Part shown: in pieces, positions 2,508-55,124 of the stretch
Layout of the letters: each line of letters starts with the position of its first letter
How positions within the stretch are numbered: the stretch's first letter is position 1
DNA from: Gammaproteobacteria bacterium
GTDB taxonomy: Bacteria > Pseudomonadota > Gammaproteobacteria > Eutrophobiales > Eutrophobiaceae
NCBI GenBank assembly: GCA_041984885.1
Contig: JBHIXH010000010.1
Span: forward strand, 1,697 to 65,696
Length of the DNA stretch: 64,000 nt
Direction: 5' to 3'
The notes under the pieces: generated by a model
What the model saw: only the letters and a program-made list of their open reading frames with translations
The model's database searches: none
Told to the model about the DNA's origin: nothing
Translations under genes and position numbers: made by a program

Positions 2508-4205
2508 GTGCTGGCCGGCTCGGCTGGGCTGCCGGTGTTGTCCGCACTCGGCCTTATATCCGGCGTCATTGTCGGTTTGTTGATCGTATTGTTTCGCCTG
2601 TATATCGAATCCAGCCAGTCCGCGATATTGCCCGGCGGTGATCCGGAAAACTACGAGCAGCTCGAACCTGTAATGCGTCTTGCGCTGTCGGTCGGTGGTG
2701 GTGTCCTGCTCGGCATCCTCTTTCTAATCATGGGGCGCAACCTGATTCGTGTCGGCATCATCCACGTGCTGGAGCGGCTGAATTACCAGGAAGGTCATCT
2801 GCCCTTTCGCAATGCCGCGTTCCAGTTTATTGCCGGTGGTATCTCGATCATCTCCGGTCACTCGGTCGGGCGTGAGGGACCGAGCGTGCATCTCGGTGCG
2901 GCCGCGTCCAGCCTGCTAGGGCAAAAGCTGCGCCTGCCGAATAACAGCATTCGCACACTAGTAGCCTGTGGTGCCGCGGCAGCGATAGCCGCATCGTTTA
3001 ATACACCGCTGGCCGGCGTCATCTTCTCGATCGAGGTGATCATGCTGGAATACAGCATCATCGGTTTTATCCCGGTCATTCTCGCCGCGGTGAGTGCCAC
3101 GGTCGTGACACGACTCGTGTTTGCGGCGGACCCGGCGTTCGTCGTCCCGGCGCTGAATCTCGCCTCGTTCTGGGAATTGCCGATCATTATCCTGATGGGT
3201 GTGGCCATCGGTGCGATCGCGGCCCTGTTTATCCACCTGACGAAGCAGTTTACCCAGTGGGGGAAACCGTTGCCGGTTTATCTGCGCCTACCGGTCGCCG
3301 GACTTGTCGTTGGCGTGCTCGCGTTTACTGCGCCCGAGATCATGGGCATTGGTTATGACACGGTAGATAAAGCGATCCTGGCTGATATCGGACTCGGGAT
3401 GCTGGTCTGGATATTGTTGATTAAATTGTTGGCGACGGCTGCCGGTGTCGGGCTGGGATTACCGGCCGGCCTGATCGGTCCGACTTTATTTCTCGGGGCG
3501 ATGGTCGGTGGCGCGGTCGGACAAATCGTCGATCAACTGCCGATGATCGCCTCGCATCCGGGTTTGTACGCGATGCTGGGCATGGGTGCGATGATGGGTG
3601 CCACGTTGCAGGCACCGCTGGCCGCGTTGATCGCGTTGCTGGAACTGACCGGCAATCAAAACATTATCTTCCCCGGTATGCTTGCGATCATCAGTGCCAA
3701 CCTGGCGACACGCGAATTGTTTGGTCAGGGCTCGATTTATCGTACCCAGATGCAGCAGATCGGTCTCGATTATCGCAACGATCCGTTTGCACAGTCGCTG
3801 CGCAAACTGGGTGTGGCCTCGGTTATGAACACGAATTTTGTCTTGATGACGCCGACGGTAAAACGCGAGCGGGCGATGGCGATCCTGGCGCAAAGGCCAC
3901 AGTGGCTGGTCATTAAAACAGAAAAGAACATGAACCTGTTGTTGCCGGCGGCGGACCTGGCCCGTTACCTGGAAGAAGCGACCGAGGAGGAGATCGACTT
4001 ACTCGAAGTGCCGGGCCAGCGGCTTGAACTGGCCCCGATCCGGCAACAATCAACGTTGCAGCAGGCACACCGGCAGTTGCAGGAGACCGATGCCGAGGCG
4101 TTATATGTGATTCAACCGATCGGTGCCGGCGGTGACCGCATCTTCGGTATTATCACCGCGCAGGATATCCAGCAGGGTTACCACTTACGCGGCCATGAAT
4201 TCTAG
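2508..4205 (+). CDS. ClC-family voltage-gated chloride channel/antiporter with C-terminal CBS region
   Basis: 565 aa, multi-TM. Has the ClC selectivity motifs 'GREGPSVHLGAA' and 'GLPAGLIGPTLFLGAMVGG'. The cytoplasmic C-terminal ~150 aa fits a CBS pair. Confidence 0.85.
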   Translation: MLAGSAGLPVLSALGLISGVIVGLLIVLFRLYIESSQSAILPGGDPENYEQLEPVMRLALSVGGGVLLGILFLIMGRNLIRVGIIHVLERLNYQEGHLPFRNAAFQFIAGGISIISGHSVGREGPSVHLGAAASSLLGQKLRLPNNSIRTLVACGAAAAIAASFNTPLAGVIFSIEVIMLEYSIIGFIPVILAAVSATVVTRLVFAADPAFVVPALNLASFWELPIIILMGVAIGAIAALFIHLTKQFTQWGKPLPVYLRLPVAGLVVGVLAFTAPEIMGIGYDTVDKAILADIGLGMLVWILLIKLLATAAGVGLGLPAGLIGPTLFLGAMVGGAVGQIVDQLPMIASHPGLYAMLGMGAMMGATLQAPLAALIALLELTGNQNIIFPGMLAIISANLATRELFGQGSIYRTQMQQIGLDYRNDPFAQSLRKLGVASVMNTNFVLMTPTVKRERAMAILAQRPQWLVIKTEKNMNLLLPAADLARYLEEATEEEIDLLEVPGQRLELAPIRQQSTLQQAHRQLQETDAEALYVIQPIGAGGDRIFGIITAQDIQQGYHLRGHEF

Positions 4206-4409
4206 CTACAGAATCCGTCGACCATTTGCAAGCTATTGATTGCACTTGTTTTACCTTTTTATTCCGAAACGAAAAATAATCCGGCAACGGTATTTTTATT
4301 GGTGCCTGTCGGTGAATTTTGCTAGCATGTGCTCCCGTCCTATGAAGCACATTCGCACTCAAAAACTGCATTTGACGGCCGGTCGAGTCGCGGATGTCCT
4401 GCCCCCTGA

Positions 4410-8193
<3,784 letters not shown>

Positions 8194-8498: not shown

Positions 8499-9203
8499 AT
8501 GTCTGATGTCAGGTATTGGGTCGTGATTCCGGCCGCGGGTATCGGTAAACGAATGCAGTCAGACATACCCAAGCAATACCTGAAGCTGGGTGAACGTACG
8601 ATCCTGGAACATACGATTCAGTGTTTTCTTGATGAAGCAAAAATACATCGCATCGTTGTTGTCATTGCCGAGCATGACAGTTACTGGTCGTCGTTAAGTA
8701 TTCATAATGACAGGATCATTACGGCTGATGGTGGTGCCGAACGTTGTCACTCGGTACTGAATGGATTAACGGCTATTCAGGACCAGGCAGATGATAATGA
8801 CTGGGTACTGGTGCACGATGCTGCCCGGCCTTGTTTGTCACGAAGTGAACTGAATCGGCTAATCAGTGAGGTTGGTGATGATGACGTTGGCGGAATACTG
8901 GCTGTACCGGTGCGTGACACGATGAAACGCGGCACAGCAGACAACGAAATCGCCGAAACAGTCGATCGGAATCAACTCTGGCACGCGTTGACACCGCAGA
9001 TGTTTCGTTTTCATAAATTACTGTCATCCCTGCGTAATATTCAGAAATTACAGCAAATTGTCACGGATGAGGCGGAGGCGATAGAGAAAACAGGCGTCAA
9101 AAGTCAGTTAGTCAGGGGCGAATATTCAAACATAAAGGTCACCGAAATGGGTGATATTGAGCTGGCAATCTTCTACCTACAACAACAGGAAAAAGCCCGA
9201 TGA
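8499..9203 (+). CDS. ispD: 2-C-methyl-D-erythritol 4-phosphate cytidylyltransferase
   Basis: 234 aa with N-terminal '[11 protein letters not shown]'. It is followed by ispF with a 4-nt overlap. Confidence 0.88.
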
Positions 9204-9673
9204 GAATTGGTCATGGCTATGATGTGCATCGTTTCGTGGCCGACCGGCCACTCATTCTCGGTGGTGTCGAGATTGCATATGAGTACGGCCTGGAAGCGCA
9301 CTCTGATGGCGATGCCGTCATTCATGCGCTCTGCGATGCGTTACTCGGGGCGGCAGGACTCGGTGATATTGGTCACTTCTTCCCGGATACCGACCGTGAA
9401 TTCAAGGACATAGACAGCCGTATACTACTACGAAATGTAGTAGAGCAGCTGTTTGTAAACAACTATCAATTGTGTAATGCAGATATTACCGTTATCGCCC
9501 AGGCACCGAAACTTGCACCACATATTGAATCAATGCGAAAAAATCTTGCAGCCGATCTGCAAGTAAAGATCGATCAAATTAATATCAAGGCGACGACAAG
9601 TGAAAACATGGGATTCCTTGGCCGCAAGGAAGGTATCGCTGCACACTGTGTTGCACTCATTGATTTAAAGTAA
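9200..9673 (+). CDS. ispF: 2-C-methyl-D-erythritol 2,4-cyclodiphosphate synthase
   Basis: 157 aa, '[12 protein letters not shown]' and '[10 protein letters not shown]'. Confidence 0.9.
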
Positions 9674-9846
9674 ATATTAAAATTTGTAAAAATTTCTTTT
9701 CTGTAAATCTTCTTCATATCTTCACCTTCCTGATTTTATTACTGATAGACTAATAGCAGGTTGGCGCTGCTGAGTGCTTGCCTGATTACCTGTCAATTTA
9801 ATAAATATAAAACCAATCTGGCTACTATGGTCGGGAAGGAGGAGAA
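9674..9846 (+). promoter_or_regulatory. AT-rich upstream/promoter region of the rpfF-like gene, with two TGTAAA repeats
   Basis: A 173-bp AT-rich intergenic region. TGTAAA occurs at 9685-9690 and 9702-9707. The RBS 'ggaaggaggag' precedes ATG 9847. Confidence 0.4.
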
Positions 9847-10752
9847 ATGAAAACTGTTAAATTTGCTAATGAAGTGCGCCTGAAAAACTTTCAGCACCTG
9901 GAAGTTGAAGTCATACCGGAGTTAAACACGGCGTGGTTATATTTTAATGCCAAACCACGCAGCTGTTTTACCCTGACACTGTTACAGGAGTTACAGGAGT
10001 TTCAGAATATCCTGTCACAGCAGCAGGGCAAACTGCCATGCGATAATGACTTGATCGATATCCAGTATAATGTGATCAGCTCAAAACACTCGGTGTTCAG
10101 TTTTGGTGGTGATCTGGATTACTTTATACAGTGTATCGAAAAGCAGGATCGTGAAGGATTAAAGCTGTATGCAAGGAAATCGATTGATGCTGTTTACTTC
10201 AATCACATAGGTCGAGAACATGATCTGACAACGATCTCCCTGGTGCATGGGAATGCACTTGGCGGTGGTTTTGAGGCCGCGTTATCCAGTCATGTAATCA
10301 TCGCCGAGAACCAGGCCGAGATGGGTTTGCCCGAAGTACTGTTTAACCTGTTTCCTGGCATGGGTGCCTATCAATTTATTTCTCAAAAAGGTGGTGCGGC
10401 TTTAGCCGAGAAAATGATTCTGAGTGGTCGGTTATACAGCGCCGAGGAATTACAGGAGATGAAAATTGTCGATGTGCTTGCCGAAGACGGCGAGGGCAGA
10501 TCAACAGTGCATGGATGGATACGCAATAACCGAAAACGCCAGAATACAATGAATGCATTACGCAAGGTCAAGCAGAGAGTGAATCCTGTCGATTACAAGG
10601 AATTGCAGGAGATCGGTGAGATCTGGGTAGATGCAGCTTTCAATATTTCAGAAAAGGATTTACGCACCATGGGACGGCTTGTGCGTAGTCAGTCAAAACA
10701 CTCCAGGCTGGAGGATCAGAGTCAGGTAAAAGAGCAAAGACTTTTTCGTTAA
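9847..10752 (+). CDS. rpfF: DSF-family signal synthase (RpfF-like enoyl-CoA hydratase/crotonase-fold)
   Basis: 301 aa. The crotonase core 'VHGNALGGGFEAALSSHVIIAE...MGLPEVLFNLFPGMGAYQF' keeps both RpfF catalytic Glu positions. The C-terminal stretch 'IGEIWVDAAF..SEKDLRTMGRLVRSQSKHS' closely parallels the Xanthomonas RpfF C-terminus. Confidence 0.8.
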   Translation: MKTVKFANEVRLKNFQHLEVEVIPELNTAWLYFNAKPRSCFTLTLLQELQEFQNILSQQQGKLPCDNDLIDIQYNVISSKHSVFSFGGDLDYFIQCIEKQDREGLKLYARKSIDAVYFNHIGREHDLTTISLVHGNALGGGFEAALSSHVIIAENQAEMGLPEVLFNLFPGMGAYQFISQKGGAALAEKMILSGRLYSAEELQEMKIVDVLAEDGEGRSTVHGWIRNNRKRQNTMNALRKVKQRVNPVDYKELQEIGEIWVDAAFNISEKDLRTMGRLVRSQSKHSRLEDQSQVKEQRLFR

Positions 10753-10828
10753 TTTAAACGAATAAATTTTTGTTAACTGAACTGATAACTGTCGCAGGAC
10801 AGATTCTCAAACAAACTGGAGAAATGAA

Positions 10829-11914
10829 ATGAAGAAAGTAGACACGAAACAGTTACGTGCGCTGGTGTCCCGGTTTAACCGGCCGGATGATCGTATTGCG
10901 CTCGGTCTGTTTACATTTGATGTGATCATGCTCGTCGCCTTGACATGTGGTGTGATTTTTCTGCAACCCGTCTGGTTGAAACTTGTGTGCAGCATAATGG
11001 CCGGTATGCAGATATCCACATTGTTTGTCATCGGTCACGATGCAGCACACAACACATACACCAGTAGTCGCAAGCTAAACGAGATTATCGGTCGTATAGC
11101 CTTTTTACCTGCGTTGCATAATTATGGTTTATGGCTAAGGGCACATAACCGGATGCATCACCAGGTGAATAATGTGCAGGGATATAATTCGTGGTCACCA
11201 TACTCGCTTGAGGAATATCGAAGCATGAGCAGGTGGCAACAAATGCGGGAGCGGTTTTACCGCAGTGTTCCTGGTATCGCTGTGTACTACATGATTGAAC
11301 GCTGGTGGAAAGAGAAGTTTTATCCATTCAGCCATATCGAAGGCAAATATAATTCAGTATATGGCGATTTTGCGTTGATCGTGGCTGGCCTCGCCATTTA
11401 CCTGTCAGGTCTGGTTTATGCCGGTGCAGTGTTGTCACATACGACGGTGCTGGAGTTGTTGGTGCTGGGTTTTGTTTTGCCAACAATGGTCTGGAACTTC
11501 ATGATAGGTTTCACAGTGTATCAACACCATACACATGAAAATATTTCATGGGCACGCACGCTGGAGGAACGCAACCGTCTCGGTGATCAGGAAGACTTCA
11601 CCATGCATGTGCAATATCCTGCCTGGTATAACCTGTTAAGTCATAACATTATGGAACACACGGCACACCATGTTGATCCACGTATTCCCTGTTATCGACT
11701 GGCTCAGGCACAGACAGTGATTAAACGTGCACTCGGCGATCAGATGCATGCGATTCGATTTACTATTGGCGGGTTTTTACGGACGATCCACCGCTGCCAG
11801 CTGTATGATTATGACAATCATTGCTGGCTGGATTTTGCAGGTAATCGCACGACCGGTCGTTTGCATCAGGCTGATGTTGCTTCGGATGTAACCGAGGTTG
11901 CGGTCGCTGCCTGA
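10829..11914 (+). CDS. membrane fatty-acid desaturase family protein (three His boxes)
   Basis: 361 aa, four predicted TM segments. His boxes 'HDAAHN', 'HNRMHH' and 'HTAHHVD' are spaced as in the di-iron FA_desaturase family. It lies 76 bp downstream of rpfF on the same strand. Confidence 0.75.
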   Translation: MKKVDTKQLRALVSRFNRPDDRIALGLFTFDVIMLVALTCGVIFLQPVWLKLVCSIMAGMQISTLFVIGHDAAHNTYTSSRKLNEIIGRIAFLPALHNYGLWLRAHNRMHHQVNNVQGYNSWSPYSLEEYRSMSRWQQMRERFYRSVPGIAVYYMIERWWKEKFYPFSHIEGKYNSVYGDFALIVAGLAIYLSGLVYAGAVLSHTTVLELLVLGFVLPTMVWNFMIGFTVYQHHTHENISWARTLEERNRLGDQEDFTMHVQYPAWYNLLSHNIMEHTAHHVDPRIPCYRLAQAQTVIKRALGDQMHAIRFTIGGFLRTIHRCQLYDYDNHCWLDFAGNRTTGRLHQADVASDVTEVAVAA

Positions 11915-11929
11915 TTAATCAAGCAGAAA

Positions 11930-11968
11930 AATAATACCCCGGCACATCTGATTGTGCCGGGGTAAATA
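11930..11968. terminator. bidirectional terminator hairpin between the desaturase and the rpfC-like gene
   Basis: CCCCGGCACA-tctgat-TGTGCCGGGG, a perfect 10-bp stem flanked by A/T-rich sequence at the convergence point. Confidence 0.65.
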
Positions 11969-14497
11969 CTAGTAGTTCGTTGCAGTGGAATTGTCTTTTT
12001 TCAGGTAGCGGTGCATTTCGTCCCGGGTCTGTAAAAAAGTCGTCTGCAGGTGTTCGAGTATGTTATCGGAAAGCTGGGATAAATCCGCGTTACGCGCAGC
12101 GTGACATATCACATCCGCGATCGAGGCAAGCTGTTTTGCACCGATACTTCTCGAACTCCCATCCAGGGTATGGGTATGATGCCCGAGGACCTCAAAATTC
12201 TTGTCCAGAAAAGCTGTCCTGATCTGTCCAATAGTCTCCTCGGAGTCATGCAGATAGCCGTTGATTAACTCGTGCATGAATTTGTTATCGGGTGCGATTT
12301 CAGTTATCTCCTGTAGAACCCTTAAATCCAGTAGCGGCAGGTTATCAACATTATTAGCGACCAGTTGCAACCTGGGTTTGCCCCGGTTGCTCTCCTTATC
12401 CAGTTTCTTTATAAGCAATTCACTGATGGTATTCAGCAGTTTTTGCGGTTCTACCGGTTTCGTCAGGTAGGCATCCAGACCGGCTTCTTCTACCTCCCGC
12501 ATGGCCTCTGTTGTCGCATTGGCAGTCAGTATCAAAACCGGAATGTGTTTTTTCTCGGGATGCATCATGCGATAGAGTTTCGCAGCTTCTATCCCGCCCA
12601 TGATCGGCATTTGCATATCAAGGATCAAAAGATCGAAGTCACGTTGCTCAAGTTCATCCAGCGCCAGTTCACCGTTCTCGGTCATGGTGACCCTGTGACC
12701 ACCTTTTTCCAGGATTTTTTGAATGACTTTCTGATTTGTTGGGTTGTCTTCTCCAACCAGTATGTCAAGGTCGGCGACGATGTTTGATATCCGATCGTCT
12801 GTTTCAAGTGCCTTGATAGTATTAATTTCGTCAAAATTCTGATGGCTCCTGATGACAGCATGCAGGCAACGAAACAGCGATGTCAGGTTAACAGGAGCGT
12901 GCAATGCAGATGCAAAGTCAGCCTCGAGCAGCTTATCAGAAAGCGCATCGGTCAGGTTTTCGCCAATATAAACCAGGCTGGGTTTGTTTTCGCCCACCTG
13001 GTTAAACAGGTCTTTGGCAAAGCCAACAGGTTCTATACTTTCATTGGCTAAAACGACAACATTATATTTTGAATCATCAGTGCCATCACCGGTTGTCAGA
13101 AGTGCGAGCGCTTCTGACTCTGTGACAGCTTCATGAGGTGTTATCGAGATTTGGGAAAAGTACTGGAGTAACTGTTTCCCCATTGAATCATTCTGATGTA
13201 CCAGCAGTACCGATCTGCCGAGATGGTGAACCGGTGAATCTATTTCGTGTACTGGCAAAGATTGTTCGACGAGAGGGGTGGTGATCCAGAATGTGCTGCC
13301 AACATTTAACTGGCTCTCAAAATTGATTTCTCCTCCCATCGCTTCAATTAATTGTTTCGCGATTGCCATGCCCAGGCCAGAGCCGCCGAATTCACGCGTG
13401 GTTGATTGATCTGCCTGGGAAAACGTACTGAATATTTTATTCTTCGCTGCCGGATCGATGCCGATGCCGGTGTCCGTGACCCTGATCGTTACATTCACCT
13501 TATTCTCATCAACTGACTGACTGACGACCTGTATTTTTATTTCGCCGGTCTTGGTGAATTTAATGGCATTATTGATCAGGTTAATCAAAATCTGGCGTAA
13601 ATGTTGTGCATCACCGCGTAACAGGACAGGAACGTCCGGCGAAATATGCCAACTGTATTTCAGCCCTTTTTTCTCTGCCACCGGCTTTAACATCAGGGCA
13701 GTCGCATTGATCAAGGCGTAAAAATCAAAGTTGATCGTTTCAATCTCCACCTTGCCGGCTTCGATCTTTGATATATCCAGAATATCGTTGATCAGGGTCA
13801 ACAGTGTTTTGGCTGAAGCATTGATCGTTGAAGAGTACTCTTTTTGTTCGTTAGATAGCCTGGTTTCATCGAGCAATTCGCTCATGCCGATAACGCCATT
13901 CAGGGGCGTACGTATCTCGTGACTCATATTGGCAAGAAACTGACTCTTGGCTTCGTTTGCTGCTTTCGCTTCCTGTACCGCTGCCTGCAGTCGGGAGATC
14001 AGGAATGATACGTAGGCACTGAGGATTACGATTGCTACGGCCAGGCCGTAGCCAAGAATTTTATGCTGACTCCAGAAAGAGTTATACGCGAGTACAAAAC
14101 TGAAACTGATCAGGCTGAGAAACGCACTGGCATACAGGTACCGATTACCATACCGAAAGCCGTGACCAAATGTCATGAATAAATAGGCGCCAAAGAGCGG
14201 GGATCCGATCTCTCCGGTCAGCATGATAGCAGTCGCGAGGAAACTGTGATCCATGACCATGCCAAAATAGCGTCGAAATGGATTGATTTCGGGGTATAGA
14301 ACGATCCAGAAGAAGTTAATCAGCAGGGCAAATTGATAGGCATAGGAAATTAAAAAAATCGATTGTGGCAGGGTATGTTCGAGGCTCATCCAGGAGACAT
14401 AACTAAGCCAGACAAAACCGACGAGAAATCGAATGATAACCTGCTCATGCTCGGAATCATGTCGCTCGGCAAGTCGTTTTAGTATGTTTTCAAACAT
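11969..14497 (-). CDS. rpfC: hybrid sensor histidine kinase (RpfC-like: multi-TM input, HisKA, HATPase, REC, HPt)
   Basis: 842 aa with ~5 N-terminal TM helices. Contains an H-box '[19 protein letters not shown]', an HATPase G-box 'DTGIGI...GGSGLGMAI', a REC domain '[11 protein letters not shown]...LLILDMQMP', and a C-terminal HPt '[12 protein letters not shown]'. Confidence 0.8.
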
Positions 14498-14589
14498 TGA
14501 GCCGTTTTTTCTGTTTCAAATGAAGAGCTTATTTCTCATAACTTTGTCTGACGCTATGTATTTTATCAGGTAATGAACCGGAAAGTATT

Positions 14590-15696
14590 TTAGCCCTGCG
14601 AATTCTGGGTTGAATTTATGAAGTTACCATCCGTTTCACGGGTGATCGGTTCAGATACTTCATCGACAATGGAAATAAAAGCATCAATGCAATCCGGGTC
14701 AAATTCTTTTCCGCGAGCGTTTTTCAGATACTCCAGCGCATCCTCGTGATTCCACGCTTTCCGGTAACTACGACTGCTGGTTAAGGCATCATAGACGTCG
14801 ACAACAGCCACGATCCTGGCCTCAATCGGAATCTTGTTCCCACTCAGATTATTCGGATAGCCCTGGCCATCAAAGCGTTCATGATGATTCAGTGCGATGA
14901 TTGCTCCCATGTCGAGAAAATCCGACTCACTGTTTTTCAGAATCTGATAACCGATCCAGGTATGACGTTGTACTATCCTGCGTTCATCGTCAGTCAATGC
15001 ATCGGTTTTGTTCAATATGGTCTCGGGAATGCCGACTTTACCGATGTCATGAATAACCGAAGCCTGCTCGATCGTATTACAAAAATCTTCCGGCAACCCC
15101 ATCACCTCGGCGGTACGTCGTGACAGTATGCCGACACGCTGAAAATGTTGATCACAAGGCACATCGCGAAATTCAGCAGCACGTGCAAGCCGGTAGAGTA
15201 TTGCACTTTCGCGGGTACGGATATTCACGGCCTGTTCCTGGTAACTCTTTTCAAGAGAGGCAGCCCGCTCGCGAATAATAGTCTGTTGCCTGCGCAGGTT
15301 CAGCAGGTTACGACAGCGAACCTTGCATTGATAATGGTCGATGGGTTTACACAGAAAATCTGTGGCGCCGGCGTCGAGTGCGTCATACAACACCGATTTA
15401 TCATCAACAATCGTCACAACGACAATTGGAATATCACACAGCAGCGGGTTTTCCCTGAATGATCGAATCAATTCAATACCGTCCATGTCCGGCATTTTGT
15501 AGTCAGTCAGGATAAGATCCGGAATATCTTCTTCAGCTGCCCGCAGTGCTTCTCTTGCATTGTCAAAACTGACTATCGAAATATTATGTCCAACGGTTTT
15601 AATAATCGTCTCGAGGATCCTGCGTTCGGTCGCCTGGTCATCAATAATCATGACCGAAAGCCTGAGTGATTGATCTCTTTTTTCGGGGTTATTCAT
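14590..15696 (-). CDS. rpfG: response regulator with HD-GYP phosphodiesterase domain (RpfG-like)
   Basis: 368 aa. REC domain 'VMIIDDQ...ILTDYKMPDMDG...CKP', then an HD-GYP domain with 'HDIGK' and 'HHERFDGQGYP'. Confidence 0.85.
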   Translation of the reverse strand: MNNPEKRDQSLRLSVMIIDDQATERRILETIIKTVGHNISIVSFDNAREALRAAEEDIPDLILTDYKMPDMDGIELIRSFRENPLLCDIPIVVVTIVDDKSVLYDALDAGATDFLCKPIDHYQCKVRCRNLLNLRRQQTIIRERAASLEKSYQEQAVNIRTRESAILYRLARAAEFRDVPCDQHFQRVGILSRRTAEVMGLPEDFCNTIEQASVIHDIGKVGIPETILNKTDALTDDERRIVQRHTWIGYQILKNSESDFLDMGAIIALNHHERFDGQGYPNNLSGNKIPIEARIVAVVDVYDALTSSRSYRKAWNHEDALEYLKNARGKEFDPDCIDAFISIVDEVSEPITRETDGNFINSTQNSQG

Positions 15697-15738: not shown

Positions 15739-16302
15739 CTACTGGCTGGAACGTTTCAGCAATACATAAACGGCACCGGTACCTCCGTCGATCGGCCGTG
15801 CTGAACAAAAGGCCAACACCCTGTCATCGAGTTGCAGCCAGTGATTCAACCTGTTTTTTAAAACGGGTAATTGATTACGTGAACCACGACCTTTGCCATG
15901 AATGATCCTGACCGCGTACGCTCCTCTCTGTGTTGAGCGTTGCAGAAAATCCTTTACAGCCGTATTCGCCTGAGTCACTACCATGCCATGCAGATCCAGT
16001 TCATCCTGTATTGCTATTAAACCGCGTTTTAATTTTCGCAGTGTCTGTTTTTGAATACCTGGTCGCAGAAAGCTGAGTTCATCGCCTGTATCGACGCTGG
16101 GCACATCGAACGGTTCAGTGCCTAACTGATGAATGACTGCCTGTTCATCCGCGAGCGATTGAGTCGGGACAGGTTCAGGTCGTTTCCTTTCGAAATGAAT
16201 CCGGTCGTTTTCTACCGGTGTTACTTCACCAATCGCGTTGCGAAACAGGTCGATATCAGTATCGCTTAACTGTTTCGTCGGTCTTTTTTTATTACTGACC
16301 AT
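15739..16302 (-). CDS. smrB: Smr-domain endonuclease (SmrB/YfcN family)
   Basis: 187 aa with a C-terminal Smr domain: 'LDLHGM...A', 'IIHGKGRGS', 'LKNRLNHWL'. Confidence 0.75.
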   Translation of the reverse strand: MVSNKKRPTKQLSDTDIDLFRNAIGEVTPVENDRIHFERKRPEPVPTQSLADEQAVIHQLGTEPFDVPSVDTGDELSFLRPGIQKQTLRKLKRGLIAIQDELDLHGMVVTQANTAVKDFLQRSTQRGAYAVRIIHGKGRGSRNQLPVLKNRLNHWLQLDDRVLAFCSARPIDGGTGAVYVLLKRSSQ

Positions 16303-16434: not shown

Positions 16435-19400
16435 TCAGGCTATCCAGTTTCTGGCGTTGTTGAACATGGTCATCCATGGGCTGTACTCGGACGGCCAATC
16501 TTCGTTAGTCCAGGATAATTGCTGCTGAAGAAATACCCGTTCCGGGTGCGGCATCATGATGGTGACGCGCCCATCGGCATTGGTAAAACCGGTCTCACCC
16601 CTTGTTGAACCATTCGGGTTAAGTGGATACGTGTCAGCAACATCACCTGCGTGATCAATGTATCGCAGGCAAACCTTTGCTGCGCCATTGTCTGAATGAT
16701 CAATATACTGAACCCGACCCTCGCCATGCGCCACGACGATAGGCAGTTCTGATCCCTGCATGTCACGCAGAAATATCGAATCCGATTTTTCTACGCGAAC
16801 CATCACGAGCCGGGATTCAAACTGCTCACTCGTGTTTTTTACAAAGCGTGGCCAGTTTTCCGTCCCGGGTATCAGTTCGGCAAGTTGCGACAGCATCTGA
16901 CAACCATTGCAGACACCAAGTGCAAATCGATCGGTACGCTGAAAGAATTGCTGAAACTGATCACGTAAGGCAGGATTGAACAGGATCGATTTTGCCCAGC
17001 CACCACCCGCACCGAGCACATCACCGTAGGAAAAACCACCGCAGGCGACGAGACCATGAAAGTCTTCAAGTGAACTCTCGCTGTTGATCAAATCCGACAT
17101 ATGTACATCGATACTGTCAAAGCCGGCGCGATCAAATGCCGCTGCCATTTCAACCTGACCATTGACGCCTTGTTCGCGCAGGATCGCGACTTTCGGACGG
17201 GCACCGGAGTGGATGGCGGGGTTCACTCTTGCAACCGGGAAGCTGGCATTCACGGAACGGCCGGGATCTTCCATGTCACACACATGCAGGTATTCCTGTT
17301 TGGCAGAATCCGGATTATCCCGCAGGCTTTGCATGTGAAAACTGGTCAGCGACCAGTCTTGTTGCAGTTGTTCCAGTGACTGGCTAAACACGGTTTCGGC
17401 TTCGTTGGTAATGGACAGGGTTCGAATATCCGTAACGGCTCCGATCACGTGCACGTGTTCTGCCAGAAGCCCGTTTCTGGTAAACGTATCCAGCACGGTT
17501 TCCAGGCAGGACTTGCGTATTTGAATAACGGCACCGGCTTCCTCGTTAAACAGGCAATCCAGTGTATCGCCTGCAAGCTCATCAAGCGCAATATTCAGGC
17601 CCAGTCGACCGGCCAGGCACATCTCGGTCAAGGTGACAAACAATCCGCCATCCGACCGGTCGTGATAGGCGAGCAGGTAACCGGCATCGTTCAATAGTTG
17701 AATGGTTTGAAAAAAATCAGCCAGTGTTTCAGGTTTTTCTATGTCAGGGCAGGCACCACCGATGTGGTTATACACCTGTGTCAGACAGGAACCGCCAAGT
17801 CGGGTTTTGCCCAGGCCCAGATCGATGAGCAATAAAACCGTTTCTTCATTCGGATTGACCAGTTGCGGCGTTAACGAGGTGGTGACATCCGCGACCGGTG
17901 CAAACGCTGTAACAATTAACGATAACGGTGCGGTGACCTGATGGTGCTCATCATCCTGTTGCCAGACGGTGTTCATTGATAATGAATCCTTTCCAACCGG
18001 TATACACAGTTGTAACTGCTGACAGAATTCTGATACGGCTTGTACAGTTTCATACAGGCGCACATCTTCATCGAGTTGACCCGCCGCCGCCATCCAGTTT
18101 GCCGATAAGGAAATATCGGCAAGTTGTAACACGCGGGCTGCACACAGATTGGTAATGGCCTCGGCAATAGCCATACGCCCGGAAGCAGCAGCATTGATCA
18201 GGGCCGTCGGTGTCCGTTCTCCGATTGCCATCGCCTCACCGCACAAGGAACCATAACCACTGGCCGTGATGGCACAGTCTGCTACCGGCACTTGCCACGG
18301 ACCGACCAGTTGATCGCGGACGACGAGACCGGAAACGCTGCGGTCGCCAATGTGAATCAGAAATCGTTTATCGGCGATGGTCGGCAGTTGCAATAGACGC
18401 CGGCAGGCATCATCAACATCAATGTTGGCCGTATTGAATTCGGTTTGATTGTAAGCGAGTGCTCTCGCTTCACGTTGCATTTTCGGTAACCGGCCGAGCA
18501 ACATCGGCAACGGCATGTCGATTGGATTGTTATTAAATTGCGAATCTGACAAGACCAGTTGCTGTGCCGCGGTCGTCTCACCAAGCACCGCAAACGGTGC
18601 ACGTTCACGTTCGCAGATCGCGGTAAAATCGGACAGGCGCGCCTCGGCAATGGCGAGCACATAGCGTTCCTGCGCCTCGTTGCACCAGATTTCCAGCGGT
18701 GACATACCGGGTTCGGCATTCGGTATCCGGCGTAGCTCAAATTCAGCGCCACGTTCACTGTCGTGCACCAGTTCCGGTAACGCGTTCGACAGGCCACCGG
18801 CACCCACATCGTGAATGGAGATAATCGGGTTCTCATTACCCATTGCCCAGCATCGATCGATGACTTCCTGGCAACGACGTTGCATCTCCGGGTTGTGTCG
18901 TTGTACCGAGGCAAAATCCAGTTCTTCATCACTGTCACCGGAGGCCATGGATGAAGCCGCACCACCACCAAGGCCAATCAACATCGCCGGTCCACCCAGC
19001 ACGATCAGTTTTGCCCCCGGCGGAATCGTCTGCTTGTGGATATGTTCAGATCGGATCATGCCGTAACCGCCGGCGATCATGATCGGTTTATGATAGCCAC
19101 GCACGCAATCGCTTGCCGGTTGCAATTGTTCATAACTGCGGAAGTAACCACATAAGGCCGGTCGACCAAACTCGTTGTTGAACGCTGCGCCACCAATCGG
19201 GCCGTCCAGCATAATGTCGAGTGCCGATAATATTCTTTCCGGTTTGTTTTCACCGGATTCCCACGGTTGTGGCAGTGCCGGAATATTCAGATTGGAAACC
19301 GAAAAACCGGTCAAGCCGGCTTTTGGTTTGCCGCCACGTCCGGTCGCTGCTTCATCGCGAATCTCACCGCCGGAACCGGTAGCGGCGCCAGCCAGGGCAG

Positions 19401-20304
19401 CGATAGCCGTCGGATGGTTATGCGTTTCCACCTTCATTAACAGATGAACTTCTTCATCGTGCCAGCGATAGCGATGTTTCTCGTCCGGAAAAAAACGGCT
19501 CGCGTAGCTGCCAGTGGTGACAGCGGCGTTATCACTGTAGGCTGACAATACACGTCCCGGATGACGGGAGTGTGTCTGACGGATCAGATCGAATAAGGAG
19601 TCCGTTTTTTGCACACCATTGATGTGCCAATTGGCATTGAAGATCTTATGGCGACAATGTTCCGAGTTCGCCTGCGCAAACATCATCAACTCAACATCAG
19701 TCGGATTACGTTTTAACGACGCGTAACTCGCGACCAGGTAATCGATTTCTGTTTCTGCCAGCGCCAGTCCCAGCGATTGATTCGCCTGTTCCAATGCCGC
19801 CCGTCCTTGCTGCATCAGGTCAATTTCATTAAAAGTACCCGGTTCATGTTGCTGAAATAAATTTTCGGCAGCTTCAACATTGAACAACACCGTCTCCGTC
19901 ATGCGGTCGTGCAGTTGCCCACTGATCGATTGCAGTTGCTCGCGCGTCAGCGTTGCTTCATCACAACTAAAATACCAGGCAATACCACGTTCTACACGCG
20001 TGACCTCAACCAGGCCGCAATTGGTCAGGATGTCGGTGGCCTTGCTTGACCAGGGTGATTGTGTGCCGATTCGAGGTGTGACGACCAGGTGAATGCCAGG
20101 CATGGGGCCGGCGGCATCACTGTCGGGATCGAGTAACTGTTTTACCTGTGCAGATTGCTGCTCGCTCAGCTCCTTCGCTGCATGAAGAAAGTGAATGTGC
20201 CGCGTCTCTACCTGTCGGATTTGCGGCAGACAGGATTGCAACAGGGGAAGGAGTTTCGCGATACGAAAGTTTGAGACGGCGTGACCGCCGACAAAAATCT
20301 GCAT
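16435..20304 (-). CDS. purL: phosphoribosylformylglycinamidine synthase (single-chain)
   Basis: 1289 aa, full-length large PurL with a C-terminal glutamine amidotransferase domain. Confidence 0.92.
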
Positions 20305-47962: not shown

Positions 47963-48254
47963 GAGTGCCTTCCTGTACTCGATTCAGGACAGGTTAGCCG
48001 AATGCTGCTGGTTGTTCCAGACGAAGTGATGCTGATCCCGGTATGAAGTCTATTGGCCAGATCCGAACATTTGACTAGACGATGCTGATCGTCTACTTTC
48101 TTTATCAACTTGATGCGCCGATTTGAAATCAGCTTGCGGGCGCTTTAAAAATACCGCTAAAGAGAGGCCTGCTTTAGCTCAAGCTGTTGCGGGTTTTTTT
48201 ATGTCTGCCATTCCCGCCATCAAATTTTCAGGTCAATTACCGGAGAACAACGAT

Positions 48255-49439
48255 ATGAGTCAATCTGAGCCGGATCAACTCCAGTCACAGACATTGGCCG
48301 TGCGCGCGGGTACCGAACGTACGATGCAGGGCGAGCATTCCGAACCGATCTACCCCACATCCAGTTTTGTCTTTGCCTCGGCCGCGCAGGCGGCGGCACG
48401 CTTCAAGGGCGATGAACCTGGCAATATCTATTCGCGTTTCACGAACCCGACCGTCCGTGCGTTCGAGCAACGACTGGCCGCGATGGAAGGCGGCGAGCGT
48501 TGTATTGCCACATCATCCGGTATGAGTGCGATTCTCAGCACCTGTCTGGGTTTGTTGAAAAGTGGTGATCACATCGTTGCCTCACGCAGTATATTCGGCA
48601 CAACCGTTGGCCTGTTCGGTACGTTGCTGCCAAAGTTCGGCATCGAAACGACGTTTGTCGACCTGACCGATCCGCATGCCTGGGAAGCGGCCATAACCGC
48701 GCGGACAAAATTACTGTTCCTCGAAACACCTTCAAACCCGCTGACCGAGGTGGCCGACATCCGCCAGCTGGCCGACCTTGCCCATTCGAAAAACTGCCTG
48801 CTCGTCGTCGATAATTGTTTTTGTACGCCGGCGTTGCAGCTACCGTTTCAACTGGGTGCCGACCTGGTCATTCATTCGGCGACCAAATATCTTGATGGCC
48901 AAGGACGCTGTATCGGTGGTGCCGTCGTCGGCCCGGAGTCCCTTCTCGGTGAGGACATCTTCGGATTTCTGCGCACGGCCGGTACCAGCATGAGCCCGTT
49001 TAACGCCTGGGTGTTTTTGAAGGGGCTGGAGACGCTGAATATCCGCATGCGTGCACATTGTGATAATGCGACCGTCATGGCCGAATGGTTATCGCAACAG
49101 GCCGGCGTGGAACGCGTTTACTATCCCGGTCTGAGCGACCACGCCGAGCACGAACTGGCAAAAAGGCAACAGTCCGGGTTCGGCGGCATTGTCAGTTTTA
49201 CCGTCGCCGGTGGCCAGCAGGCCGCCTGGAAACTGATTGATCAGACGAAGATTTTTTCGATCACGGCAAACCTGGGTGATACGAAGAGCACGATCACGCA
49301 TCCTGCGACGACGACGCATCACAAGCTGACGGACGAACAACGCGAGCAGTCTGGCATCGCACCAGGCCTGATTCGGCTCTCGATCGGGCTCGAGCATCCC
49401 GCGGACCTGCAGGCCGATCTGGCACAGGGACTGGCCTAA
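48255..49439 (+). CDS. metZ: O-succinylhomoserine sulfhydrylase (Cys/Met-metabolism PLP enzyme)
   Basis: Start at ATG 48255 with the RBS 'ggagaa'. PLP fold with the lysine region 'HSATKYLDGQG'. Confidence 0.8.
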   Translation: MSQSEPDQLQSQTLAVRAGTERTMQGEHSEPIYPTSSFVFASAAQAAARFKGDEPGNIYSRFTNPTVRAFEQRLAAMEGGERCIATSSGMSAILSTCLGLLKSGDHIVASRSIFGTTVGLFGTLLPKFGIETTFVDLTDPHAWEAAITARTKLLFLETPSNPLTEVADIRQLADLAHSKNCLLVVDNCFCTPALQLPFQLGADLVIHSATKYLDGQGRCIGGAVVGPESLLGEDIFGFLRTAGTSMSPFNAWVFLKGLETLNIRMRAHCDNATVMAEWLSQQAGVERVYYPGLSDHAEHELAKRQQSGFGGIVSFTVAGGQQAAWKLIDQTKIFSITANLGDTKSTITHPATTTHHKLTDEQREQSGIAPGLIRLSIGLEHPADLQADLAQGLA

Positions 49440-49701: not shown

Positions 49702-50883
49702 ATGCCCGGAAGAAATTTCCTTTTTATCCCCGGCCCGACCCAGGTACCGCGTCGTATTCAGAACGCCATGAACATCGAGCAGGAAGACATGCGCGCGATG
49801 GACCTGCCGGAATTCACCAAACCGCTGTACGAAGACATAAAGAAGATCTTCAAGATGGAGAAGGGCCGTGTCTTCATCTTTCCCGCCTCCGGTACCGGTG
49901 GTTGGGAATCTGCCGTGGCCAACACGCTGAACAAGGGCGACAAGGTGCTGATGTCCGGTTTCGGACATTTCTCAAACCTGTGGATCGACCTGTGCCAACG
50001 CTGGGGCCTGGATGTGCAGGCACTCGAAGTCGAATGGGGCGAAGGCGTACCGGTCGAGCAGTACGCGAAGATCCTCGAGGCTGACAAGAACCATGAGATT
50101 AAGGCCGTGTTCGCCACGCAGAACGAGACTGCGACCGGGGTTGCCTCCGATATCGCCGGTGTCCGCAAGGCGCTGGATGCGGCTAACCACCCGGCGCTGT
50201 TGTTTGTCGATGGTGTCAGCTCGGTCGCCTCGATCGATTTCCGCATGGACGAGTGGGGCGTCGACATCTGTGTCTCCGGCTCGCAAAAAGGCTTTATGTT
50301 GCCGACCGGACTTGGCATCGTTGCCGCCAGCGAAAAAGCGCTCGCCTGCCGCGAAAACTCCGACCTGCCAAAAACCTTCTTTGACTGGAAGGATCAGATC
50401 GCCACGAACGACAACGGTTTCTTCCCGTATACGCCGCCGATGAATCTGCTGCGCGGTCTGCGCGAGTCGATCAATATGCTGCTGGACGAAGGCCTGGAAA
50501 ACGTCTTTGCCCGGCATAACCGCATGGCGAGCGCGGTGCGTGCTGCCGTCGGTGCCTGGGGCATGACAACGATTGCCACGGACGAAAAATGGTACTCGGA
50601 TACGGTCACCGCGGTCAGGGTACCGGAAGGGTTTGATGGCAACGAAGTCGCCAGACATGCGTATCGTTATTACAACCTGGCATTGTCCATCTCGCTGGCG
50701 AAGATCGCCGGCCAGGCATTCCGTATCGGTCACCTCGGCGATATGAACGAGTTGATGGTGTTAACACCGATCAATGGTGCCGAAATGGCGATGAAAGATC
50801 TGGGTTACCCGATCGAGCTGGGTAGTGGTGTCGCCGCCGCGCAGGAATACCTGCGCAACACGAAGCAGGATCGCCTTGCTTGA
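49702..50883 (+). CDS. sga: serine--glyoxylate aminotransferase (class V aminotransferase)
   Basis: 393 aa; 'FIPGPTQVPRRI' and the 'SGSQKGFMLPTGL' PLP-Lys region. Immediately followed by mcl-mtkAB-hprA-ppc. Confidence 0.8.
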   Translation: MPGRNFLFIPGPTQVPRRIQNAMNIEQEDMRAMDLPEFTKPLYEDIKKIFKMEKGRVFIFPASGTGGWESAVANTLNKGDKVLMSGFGHFSNLWIDLCQRWGLDVQALEVEWGEGVPVEQYAKILEADKNHEIKAVFATQNETATGVASDIAGVRKALDAANHPALLFVDGVSSVASIDFRMDEWGVDICVSGSQKGFMLPTGLGIVAASEKALACRENSDLPKTFFDWKDQIATNDNGFFPYTPPMNLLRGLRESINMLLDEGLENVFARHNRMASAVRAAVGAWGMTTIATDEKWYSDTVTAVRVPEGFDGNEVARHAYRYYNLALSISLAKIAGQAFRIGHLGDMNELMVLTPINGAEMAMKDLGYPIELGSGVAAAQEYLRNTKQDRLA

Positions 50884-50911
50884 TTAAAACGATAACCAGG
50901 AGAAATGCCCG

Positions 50912-51865
50912 ATGAGTTTTACCCAATATGAACAGGCGACACCTCGCCTGCAACGCAGCGAGCTGGCTGTGCCCGGATCGAACCCGAAAATGTTCGAGAA
51001 GGCCGCGGCCAGTGATGCGGATTACATTTTTCTCGACTGTGAAGATGCCGTCGTCCCTGACGACAAGGAACAAGCCCGAAAAAATATCATTGAAGCATTA
51101 AATGATATTGATTGGGGCAACAAGACGATGTCCGTGCGTATTAATGGTCTCGATACACATTATATGTACCGGGATGTTGTCGACATTCTGGAACAGGCCG
51201 GAGATAACCTCGACACGATCCTGATCCCGAAAGTCGGTACGCCGGAAGACGTCTACGCGGTCGACATGCTGGTCACGCAAATCGAGACCGCCATGGGACT
51301 GAAGAAAAAGATCGGGCTGGAATGCCTGATTGAAACCGCTCTCGGCGGTGCCAACGTGTTCACGATCGCGCAAGCGAGCCCGCGACTGGAAGCCTTCCAC
51401 TTTGGTGTCGCGGATTATGCGGCCAGCCTGCGTTCACGCACGACTGTCATCGGTGGTTTGAACCCGGACTATGCGTGTAAAGGCGTCGAAATCGATCAAT
51501 GGCATGCGGCCCAGGTGCAAATGCTGACCGCCTGCCGTGCCTATGGTCTGCGTGCGATCGATGGCCCGTTCGGCGATTTCAGTGACCCGGACGCCTATCG
51601 TGAGGCGGCACGTCGTGTCGCAGCCCTCGGTTACGAGGGCAAGTGGGCAATCCATCCGTCACAAATCGAACTGGCGAACGAAGTCATGTCACCACCGGAA
51701 GCCGAGGTGACGCGTGCCCGACGTGTGCTGGAAGCGCTCGAAGATGCGGCAAAGGCCGGTAAGGGTGCAGCCCAGCTGGACGGCAAGATGATTGACATTG
51801 CCTCGGAACGTATGGCGCGCAATGTGATCGCGCAGGCAGATCAAATCGAAGCCAAATCAAAATAA
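50912..51865 (+). CDS. mcl: malyl-CoA lyase (HpcH/HpaI / citrate-lyase beta family)
   Basis: 317 aa; 'RSELAVPGSNPKMFEKAA', 'FLDCEDAV'. Confidence 0.8.
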   Translation: MSFTQYEQATPRLQRSELAVPGSNPKMFEKAAASDADYIFLDCEDAVVPDDKEQARKNIIEALNDIDWGNKTMSVRINGLDTHYMYRDVVDILEQAGDNLDTILIPKVGTPEDVYAVDMLVTQIETAMGLKKKIGLECLIETALGGANVFTIAQASPRLEAFHFGVADYAASLRSRTTVIGGLNPDYACKGVEIDQWHAAQVQMLTACRAYGLRAIDGPFGDFSDPDAYREAARRVAALGYEGKWAIHPSQIELANEVMSPPEAEVTRARRVLEALEDAAKAGKGAAQLDGKMIDIASERMARNVIAQADQIEAKSK

Positions 51866-51894
51866 CTTTTTAACTATTAATCAGGAGAATCAGC

Positions 51895-53070
51895 GTGGAT
51901 ATTCATGAATATCAGGCGAAAGAGATACTCTCCGGCTTTGGCGTCCCGATTGGTAAGGGTGGACTGGCATACAGCCCGGAGCAGGCCTCATATCGCGCCA
52001 CTGAAATTGGTGGCGATGTCTGGGTCGTTAAGGCGCAGATACATTCCGGTGCCCGTGGCAAGGCCGGTGGTATTAAAGTATGTAAATCAGAGAGCGAAGT
52101 CTGGGATGCCGCGAACGAATTACTTGGCAAAAAACTGATCACGCACCAGACCGGCGAACAAGGCAAGGTGTGTCACCGGCTGTACATAGAAGAAGGTTGC
52201 AACATCGGTCGCGAAATTTACCTCGCGTTCGTACTTGACCGGGCCAAAGAGAGCGTGACCGTGGTTGCCTCGGCCGAGGGCGGTATGGAGATCGAACAAC
52301 TCGCAGTCGAAAAGCCGGAATCGATCATCAAGATCGCGGTCGAACCGGCGGTCGGTATGCAGGCGTTCCAGGCACGTGAACTGGCGTTTGCTCTCGGCCT
52401 GGACAAATCTCAAATCAATCAGGCCGTGTCGACGTTTCTTGGCTGTTACCGGGCGATGCGTGACCTGGATGCGAACATGGTCGAAATCAATCCATTGGTT
52501 GTCACGAAAGAGGGCAGTCTGCTCGCGGTCGATGCGAAGATGGGTTTTGATGAGAACGCGCTGTTCCGTCATCCAAACATCTCGGAACTGCGCGACAAGT
52601 CGCAGGAAGACCCGCGCGAAATGCGTGCCGCGGATCGTGGACTCAGCTACGTCGGTCTTGATGGCAACATCGGTTGCATTATTAACGGTGCCGGCCTGGC
52701 GATGGCGACGATGGACATGATCAAGCATTCCGGTGGTGAACCGGCCAACTTCCTCGATATTGGTGGTGGTGCCTCGCCGGAACGTACCGCGAAGGCATTC
52801 AACCTGGTGTTGTCCGATGACAATGTCGAGACGATTCTCGTCAATATCTTTGCCGGTATTAACCGTTGTGACTGGATCGCCGAAGGCGTGGTGCAGGCCG
52901 TTGAGAAGATCGATCTGAAGGTACCGCTGGTCGTGCGTTTGTCGGGTACGAACGTCGAAGCCGGTCAGAAGATCATCAAGGACAGCGGCTTGCCGATCAT
53001 CTCGGCAGACACCCTGGCAGAAGCCGCAGAAAAAGCGGTCGCAGCCTGGAAACAACACACAGGCAAGTAG
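51895..53070 (+). CDS. mtkA: malate--CoA ligase (malate thiokinase) beta subunit, SucC-like
   Basis: GTG start, '[11 protein letters not shown]', ATP-grasp. Assigned to mtk rather than suc from its position between mcl and hprA. Confidence 0.75.
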
Positions 53071-53082
53071 GGGAGAAACAAC

Positions 53083-53973: not shown

Positions 53974-54072
53974 GCCGGAGTTCGTACCAATCATAGGGCG
54001 TTTCATGTCAGATGAGGCGCCCTTTGTTCCAAATTTAAAGTTAAAAATAAAACGATCATTCAGGAGTCAAGT

Positions 54073-55047: not shown

Positions 55048-55124
55048 ATTCACAAACCTCACAGCCGCAAGTGGTTGTGAGGTTACCTGCTTGCTGTCTC
55101 TAATTCACATACGGTTTAACCATC

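Follow-up and report, generated by a model that had tools for sequence, protein, structure and literature searches.

What is a set of four genes resembling the cell-cell signalling system of plant-pathogenic xanthomonads doing in the chromosome of an environmental gammaproteobacterium, and why does one of them encode a fatty-acid desaturase? The question is raised by positions 9674-15696 of a 64,000-nucleotide (nt) stretch of contig JBHIXH010000010.1 (assembly GCA_041984885.1), hereafter the window, which an initial annotation made from the sequence alone had read as a complete diffusible signal factor (DSF) module of the Rpf type, inserted by horizontal transfer. The module itself is borne out, the transfer is not: the block is likely a chromosomal, vertically inherited DSF-family quorum-sensing circuit, whose desaturase gene is probably co-transcribed with, and functionally tied to, rpfF. 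The evidence for a DSF/Rpf-type circuit consists of the grouping of the synthase with RpfF, the DSF-docking motif of the kinase, an intact REC plus HD-GYP regulator, and a convergent layout; all four open reading frames (ORFs) are intact, with the coordinates and architectures that had been assigned to them:

9847..10752, plus strand: rpfF-like DSF-family synthase, a crotonase of 301 amino acids (aa), from Pfam, NCBIfam and PDB sequence matches
10829..11914, plus strand: membrane di-iron fatty-acid desaturase family protein, 361 aa, from Pfam FA_desaturase
11969..14497, minus strand: rpfC-like hybrid sensor kinase, 842 aa, from its Pfam domains and docking motif
14590..15696, minus strand: rpfG-like response regulator, 368 aa, from Pfam Response_reg plus HD_5/HD

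In the order of this list, the Pfam scan returned ECH_1/ECH_2; FA_desaturase; HisKA, HATPase_c, Response_reg and Hpt; and Response_reg with HD_5/HD.

Regarding the synthase, it matches Pfam ECH_1 with 69.5 bits, and among PDB sequences it scores 201 bits against Xanthomonas RpfF (3m6m) and 198 bits against a xanthomonad-type structure (7zq7); the score is 157 bits for RpfF structures of the Burkholderia diffusible signal factor (BDSF) type (6dgn, 5fus), and about 50 bits or less for DspI and all the ordinary enoyl-CoA hydratases in the PDB. Over 271 columns, the synthase is 41.7% identical to Xanthomonas campestris (Xcc) RpfF; with BDSF-type RpfF, the identity is 33.7%. The alignment with the Xcc enzyme bears out both the catalytic residues and the RpfF-like C-terminus proposed at the outset: E143 (in GGGFEAALSSH, nt 10273-10275) and E163 (in GLPEVLF, nt 10333-10335) correspond to E141 and E161 and are invariant among 13 homologues, and the match reaches the C-terminal helices, where W260 corresponds to Xcc W258. 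Among NCBIfam models, PRK08788 is passed with 340.9 bits (cut-off 177), and the enoyl-CoA hydratase models give at most 72 bits each. In a neighbour-joining tree rooted on a BDSF synthase, xanthomonad RpfF is the sister of an environmental clade that contains the window protein; by bit scores and by this tree, the synthase groups with RpfF and not with the hydratases of β-oxidation. Judged in this way, the crotonase is a member of the RpfF family, not an equivalog of the xanthomonad enzyme. Its relatives number thousands in metagenomes, many of them named "DSF synthase" by the Joint Genome Institute (JGI), and the closest match in the genome collection has 61% identity.

As for the receptor, the gene convergent with rpfF encodes a hybrid kinase with the predicted RpfC architecture, namely a multi-transmembrane input followed by HisKA (H193), HATPase (residues 295-409), REC (579-691, D627) and HPt (743-819, H776). 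Hydropathy reveals four clear hydrophobic segments and a weaker one within residues 20-170, which fits the N-out, five-transmembrane topology of RpfC. Directly before the first segment, the N-terminus reads R12-H-D14-S15-E16-H-E-Q19 (nt 14441-14464), and it is this stretch that speaks for an RpfC-type input domain. Cai et al. (PMC5391125) showed that the part of Xcc RpfC to which DSF binds is its N-terminal sensor of 22 residues, in which R15, D17, S18, E19 and Q22 are essential for sensing, S18T is tolerated, and A16, H20 and A21 are not essential; taken together, these residues give R-A-D-S-E-H-A-Q for positions 15-22. Compared with the xanthomonad residues as printed in that paper, R12, D14, S15, E16 and Q19 of the window kinase match all five docking residues with identical spacing, and H17 also matches H20. 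The motif, as R-x-D-[ST]-E-H-E-Q, recurs in most rpfF-linked kinases of the loci fetched for comparison (described below). Further along the chain, the spacing between the sensor and the phospho-accepting H193 is close to that between the sensor and H198 in Xcc RpfC.

The REC domain of the kinase matches the Xcc RpfC receiver structure (3m6m_D) at 2.4e-24; this receiver is the one portion of xanthomonad RpfC or RpfG with a PDB entry. A profile built from 25 input domains found 25 matches, all short environmental fragments, several of which are labelled RpfC by JGI. Pfam gave no match for residues 1-175 or 416-575, even at E ≤ 10; by eye, the latter segment resembles a degenerate, Asp-less receiver. 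Xcc RpfC has about 726 aa, compared with 842 aa here; full-length homologues of the window kinase at the same locus are similar to it in length (839-851 aa), and one (L171) has only 690 aa.

The regulator is, as had been proposed, a REC plus HD-GYP protein matching RpfG, and its gene adjoins rpfC, 92 nt upstream on the same strand. Its receiver (15-122, with D65), HD pair (216-217), HHERFDGQGYP (271-281) and HDIGK motif are intact; Pfam scores are 130 bits for HD_5 and 85.6 bits for Response_reg, and among solved structures the HD-GYP phosphodiesterase 4mcw comes closest (4e-46).

The circuit was then placed among its relatives. A genome scan with an RpfF profile, of which the 80 best loci were kept (none from xanthomonads), and a metagenome scan with a desaturase profile, which gave 80 more, were complemented with loci obtained by exact-protein look-ups; layouts were counted on those rpfF loci, 64 in all, whose downstream flank spans 6 kb or more. 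A kinase with an RpfC-type input domain occurs in 55 of these 64, it is convergent with rpfF in 50, which makes this the commonest layout, and an HD-GYP gene is also present in 37; the arrangement is that of xanthomonads without rpfH and rpfB. Clusters of rpfF-rpfG-rpfC have been listed in Methylophaga, Leptospirillum, Thiobacillus and Methylobacillus by a 2015 review (PMC4504480), so that the core circuit described here adds a member to a known type and is no surprise; the initial annotation overstated the novelty of a DSF system outside the xanthomonads, and with it the unexpectedness of the host. The window shares with these clusters the three core genes and the convergent layout, and their hosts are uncharacterised environmental bacteria, some of them methylotrophs; the Methylophaga loci (L027, L035, L037, L060, L073) have rpfF, an RpfC-type kinase and an HD-GYP gene, in that order. 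These loci have no desaturase adjoining rpfF, unlike the window, and the window lineage is set apart by carrying its cluster between ispF and smr-purL. In L031, a Leptospirillum locus from a metagenome-assembled genome (MAG) on a contig of some 5 kb, no homologue of the window desaturase was found downstream of rpfF. Hydrothermal MAGs (SZUA) and MAGs from Langseth Ridge contributed further relatives.

With X. campestris (rpfB-rpfF converging on rpfC-rpfH-rpfG) the window shares an RpfF with both catalytic glutamates (42% identical), an RpfC with the short R-x-D-S-E-H-x-Q sensor, about five transmembrane segments and the HisKA-HATPase-REC-HPt order, and a REC plus HD-GYP regulator, with the synthase convergent to the rpfG-rpfC operon. 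In contrast, it has neither rpfB nor rpfH, it carries a membrane desaturase between rpfF and rpfC, and it belongs to an environmental gammaproteobacterium that has serine-cycle genes rather than to a plant pathogen. The absence of an rpfB-like ligase, already noted in the annotation, holds for the whole 64-kb window, where no AMP-binding signature or homologue was found; the one ORF of 555 aa that was checked is rpsA. No second copy of any module gene was found across the window either. As for the BDSF synthases of Burkholderia and Cronobacter and DspI of Pseudomonas, they are likewise crotonase-family synthases of cis-2-enoic acids, but the window RpfF is more distant from them (34% identity and 157 bits to BDSF RpfF, 50 bits to DspI), and the Burkholderia/Cronobacter receptor is the PAS-GGDEF-EAL protein RpfR, whereas that of the window is of the RpfC type.

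By analogy with the characterised systems (PMC4504480, PMC5391125), from which the signal chemistry and the outputs are taken, the circuit would operate as follows. RpfF would dehydrate a 3-hydroxyacyl chain, delivered on acyl carrier protein (ACP) by fatty-acid synthesis, to the cis-2-enoyl chain, and would then hydrolyse the thioester to release the free cis-2-unsaturated fatty acid; the acid would bind the short periplasm-facing N-terminus of the five-transmembrane RpfC, which would autophosphorylate on H193 and pass the phosphate through D627 and H776 to D65 of RpfG; finally, the HD-GYP domain of RpfG would degrade cyclic di-GMP, switching biofilm and motility-type outputs.

The presence of a membrane desaturase beside the synthase had been recorded from the start, and correctly, but it was given too little weight: it is the sole feature of the block missing from the literature searched, where no description of an rpfF-desaturase pairing was found, an absence that does not amount to proof. 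The protein has 92.9 bits against Pfam FA_desaturase, four predicted transmembrane helices, and three histidine boxes: HDAAH (70-74, nt 11036-11050), HNRMHH (106-111, nt 11144-11161) and HTAHH (277-281, nt 11657-11671); a further histidine motif, QHHTH, occupies residues 232-236. These histidines and the four helices are invariant among 44 homologues. The AlphaFold2 model, with a predicted local distance difference test (pLDDT) score of 87.9, has FAD-like desaturase subunits as its nearest PDB folds (TM-score 0.76), followed by AlkB, and the sequence search of the PDB returned one FAD-like match; neither the sequence match nor the fold match discriminates between substrates. The DesA/Delta-12-type desaturases and the Bacillus Delta-5/Delta-10 Des have the same three histidine boxes and four helices, likewise without a cytochrome b5 fusion; the window protein matches the models of characterised desaturases weakly (63 bits, cut-off 500), and it differs from acyl-lipid desaturases in that its clade is defined by the pairing with rpfF, and the neighbouring clade by the pairing with a DUF4442 gene.

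The pairing recurs in three genomic contexts, namely the ispF locus, L086 and L105. At the ispF locus it is found, besides the window, in L002, L004, L006, L084/85, L089-L091 and L171, and the desaturase slot of L007 is filled by a far more divergent family member (34% identical). On the same strand, the gap between the two genes is 10 nt in L086, 39-45 nt in L171 and L084, and 76-88 nt in the window and L002; in L105, the pair has a 40-nt overlap instead of a gap, and rpfF, desaturase and rpfC follow one another on one strand before a DUF4442 gene (6017-6484). In L086 the pair lies beside an MMPL/HAE3 exporter, a DUF4442 gene (3805-4281) and kinase genes; an IS66 element follows some 1.8 kb downstream. 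In the desaturase tree, the copies from the ispF locus make up one clade, to which L086 is sister. The next clade is not linked to rpfF; it has, immediately upstream, a DUF4442 gene of the hot-dog (thioesterase) fold (L087, L092-L095, L097-L099, L169, L170). Within this set, L169 has the order desaturase-DUF4442-desaturase, and in L087 and L170 the neighbourhood also includes a Crp-like regulator and an acyl-CoA-ligase-like gene. More distant relatives, a large freshwater clade with 35-38% identity, are solitary among housekeeping genes. It should be added that some of these relatives are abundant in ocean metagenomes: for one rpfF-linked desaturase allele (P0189, from L084/L085), the assembly collection lists 41 blocks, Tara Oceans contigs among them, so that the lineage carrying the module is common in the ocean.

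The desaturase probably tailors or supports the fatty-acid signal. How it does so is a matter of lower confidence: we lean, at somewhat less than an even chance, towards an enzyme that would add a second double bond or another oxidation, before or after release of the acid, to give a modified (e.g., dienoic) DSF-family signal, with its gene in the accessory slot that xanthomonads fill with rpfB. This option is favoured because the partners of the family are always enzymes able to release free acids, because the rpfF-linked copies form a dedicated clade, and because one context (L086) adds a lipid exporter. The main rival, somewhat less likely still, leaves the DSF core as it is and makes the desaturase a partner in membrane homeostasis: the drain of acyl-ACP by RpfF would disturb the lipid composition, and a co-expressed phospholipid desaturase would bring fluidity back, as a counterpart of RpfB. 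RpfF is described as a broad thioesterase, which RpfB is proposed to counteract in xanthomonads (PMC4504480). The desaturase family resembles acyl-lipid desaturases in JGI names and in its weak DesA/DesB matches, distant relatives are solitary in housekeeping neighbourhoods, the gene is often lost while the circuit persists, and in Leptospirillum an rpfF gene and a desaturase gene, for which no linkage is shown, were both induced under salt adaptation (PMC9053815). Against homeostasis, the rpfF-linked desaturases constitute a clade of their own, apart from the stand-alone ones, and both the DUF4442 tie of the next clade and the lipid exporter of L086 fit a free lipid product better. It is barely credible, instead, that the block assembles an ordinary β-oxidation hydratase, an ordinary lipid desaturase and unrelated two-component genes that happen to be adjacent: Pfam alone would allow it, as it shows ECH_1/ECH_2 and generic two-component domains, and the cut-off of the NCBIfam RpfF equivalog is not reached, but 150 bits separate the RpfF structures from every generic hydratase, and a kinase with a DSF-docking input domain stands beside rpfF in 55 of the 64 loci. 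The identity of a generic enoyl-CoA hydratase was rejected on the same scores (201 against about 50 bits for structures, and 246.8 against at most 72 bits for family models).

Returning to the reading preferred here, that of a DSF circuit with a signal-tailoring desaturase, a number of observations weigh against it. The RpfF equivalog model, NF053515, is the second-best NCBIfam match, but with 246.8 bits it misses its cut-off of 550, and a product specificity identical to that of xanthomonad RpfF cannot be assumed from it; no model specific for RpfG exists, and rpfG is missing at 8 of the 15 ispF-site relatives with enough flanking sequence. The kinase has, compared with Xcc RpfC, about 160 extra residues between HATPase and REC (416-575; window 12773-13252, minus strand). 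The desaturase is dispensable for the circuit, being absent from L003, L008, L009, L011, L013, L014, L029 and L047, and L005 retains a remnant of it (5413-5956), in which residues 22-163 and 327-361 lie in separate frames and the central portion, including the third histidine box, has been lost, next to intact rpfF, rpfC and rpfG. Known relatives of the family are annotated as acyl-lipid (phospholipid) desaturases, and no membrane desaturase is known to act on free fatty acids or on RpfF substrates.

What is known of DSF signalling comes almost wholly from pathogens of plants and humans. The experimentally defined DSF-docking residues of RpfC are kept in uncultured environmental gammaproteobacteria, where the full sensor chemistry appears conserved, and the repeated association of rpfF with a desaturase offers a concrete hypothesis on new signal chemistry, as well as a suggestion of what may replace rpfB in these lineages. 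A broader proposal, more tentative than that of a modified signal for this locus, would be that RpfF and its dedicated desaturase make an extra-unsaturated or oxidised DSF signal, not described so far, in widespread marine and sediment gammaproteobacteria, and, jointly with this, that they belong to a class of two-enzyme cassettes in which the desaturase always goes with a thioesterase-capable partner (RpfF or DUF4442) and serves free fatty-acid signals or lipids. If the desaturase serves membrane upkeep only, the locus is an ordinary addition to a known family.

As for the origin of the block, the annotation had proposed horizontal insertion on the basis of a GC content of 37-45% in the block against 50-55% in ispF and purL. 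The flanks, eno-ftsB-ispD-ispF to the left of the module and smr-purL to its right, are indeed housekeeping genes, but the compositional step is not there. The module genes have 44.9-47.6% GC and a third-position value (GC3) of 0.49-0.53; ispF has 47.3% (GC3 0.44), ispD 47.5% and smr 47.9% (GC3 0.45), so that the low-GC stretch includes the housekeeping neighbours, which are as AT-rich as the module. Only purL (53.1%), which alone fits the range given for the flanks, and more distant genes exceed the module, and its intergenic spacers are the only parts at 24-41% GC. No tRNA gene was found in the window, no integrase or transposase gene at the borders of the module, where the neighbours are housekeeping genes, and no flanking repeats beyond weak ones at chance level.

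The ispF-[rpf]-smr-purL placement is moreover shared by 18 further distinct loci (L002-L009, L011, L013, L014, L029, L047, L084, L089-L091, L171), whose RpfF proteins are 42-66% identical to that of the window and group together in the neighbour-joining tree; because these loci were fetched through rpfF or the desaturase, the comparison did not extend to close relatives with an empty site. The accessory content of the site varies, with the desaturase in 11 of the 19 loci, including the window, and rpfG in 7 of the 15 with enough flank. Composition, the missing mobility features and the conserved synteny accordingly led to the rejection of recent horizontal transfer: the module is a long-term resident of the ispF-smr-purL site and is probably inherited vertically. 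For the four genes to be a recently acquired genomic island within a conserved housekeeping run is very improbable. Their mean GC of 46.5% does lie about 2.3 standard deviations below that of the other 35 genes of the window (mean 52.7%, standard deviation 2.7), and relatives differ in whether they have the desaturase and rpfG; on the other side, ispD, ispF, ftsB and smr match the module in their low GC and have a lower GC3, tRNAs, integrase or transposase genes and flanking direct repeats were not found, and the same site is occupied in 18 further loci, with RpfF identities down to 42% and clustering in the tree.

The remaining features of the locus concern its transcription and its borders:

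9200-9673: ispF, left flank of the module
9674..9846, plus strand: AT-rich spacer preceding rpfF (34% GC), presumed to contain the promoter
9838-9842, plus strand: GGAGG ribosome-binding site preceding rpfF
10753..10828, plus strand: spacer of 76 nt between rpfF and the desaturase gene, without an intrinsic terminator
ahead of the ATG at 10829, plus strand: GGAG ribosome-binding site of the desaturase gene
11935..11964, minus strand: 12-bp G+C-rich hairpin between the convergent genes, intrinsic terminator of rpfC
15739-16302, minus strand: smr, right flank of the module
16435-20304: purL, right flank, beyond smr

No match to the sigma-70 consensus was found in the 9674..9846 spacer, where the rpfF promoter is presumed to lie. 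The spacer that follows rpfF (10753-10828) has no terminator-like site but weak A/U hairpins (-12.7 kcal/mol, z -2.2), and rpfF and the desaturase gene are probably co-transcribed. Regarding the strong bidirectional terminator that had been placed at the convergence point, the hairpin is real, with 12 bp and -25 kcal/mol on both strands (z -5.5 and -5.0), but its bidirectional action is half supported, because a U-tract occurs on the minus-strand transcript only: on that strand the hairpin is followed by UUAUUUUUCU, which gives the U-tract for the rpfC transcript, whereas on the plus strand it follows the desaturase stop codon and precedes AAAUACUAGUAG, without a U-tract. At the opposite end, 42 nt separate the end of smr from rpfG, which lies downstream on the same strand, and read-through into rpfG-rpfC is possible. 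This flanking gene had been named smrB; an Smr gene it is, but the SmrB label does not hold, since its product scores better with the SmrA model (128 bits, cut-off 180) than with the SmrB model (69 bits, cut-off 128), both below cut-off, and it is best called an Smr-domain endonuclease.

Elsewhere in the window, the serine-cycle genes reported for this genome are present as a contiguous block at 49702-57872, which comprises an aspartate/serine-glyoxylate aminotransferase-like gene, a malyl-CoA-lyase-like CitE, the beta and alpha subunits of malate-CoA ligase, a glyoxylate/hydroxypyruvate reductase and phosphoenolpyruvate carboxylase; a formate-tetrahydrofolate ligase at 594-2264 was identified by synteny with L002. 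A frameshift divides the gene pyrG, for cytidine triphosphate synthase (4431-6085), into ORF 4431-5588, whose tail is nonsense, and ORF 5570-6085, which encodes the C-terminal glutamine-amidotransferase portion; L002 and L003 have pyrG as one gene of 551-552 aa, and the frameshift is probably an indel error of the assembly rather than a real pseudogene. Finally, a SAM_alpha (SAM-II) riboswitch (RF00521) lies at 48105-48183 on the plus strand, where its 39 bits exceed the gathering score of 36; since the TTG start listed for ORF 48123-49439 falls inside it, the true start of that gene is probably further downstream, and the riboswitch is of an alphaproteobacterial type, inside a window that otherwise looks gammaproteobacterial.

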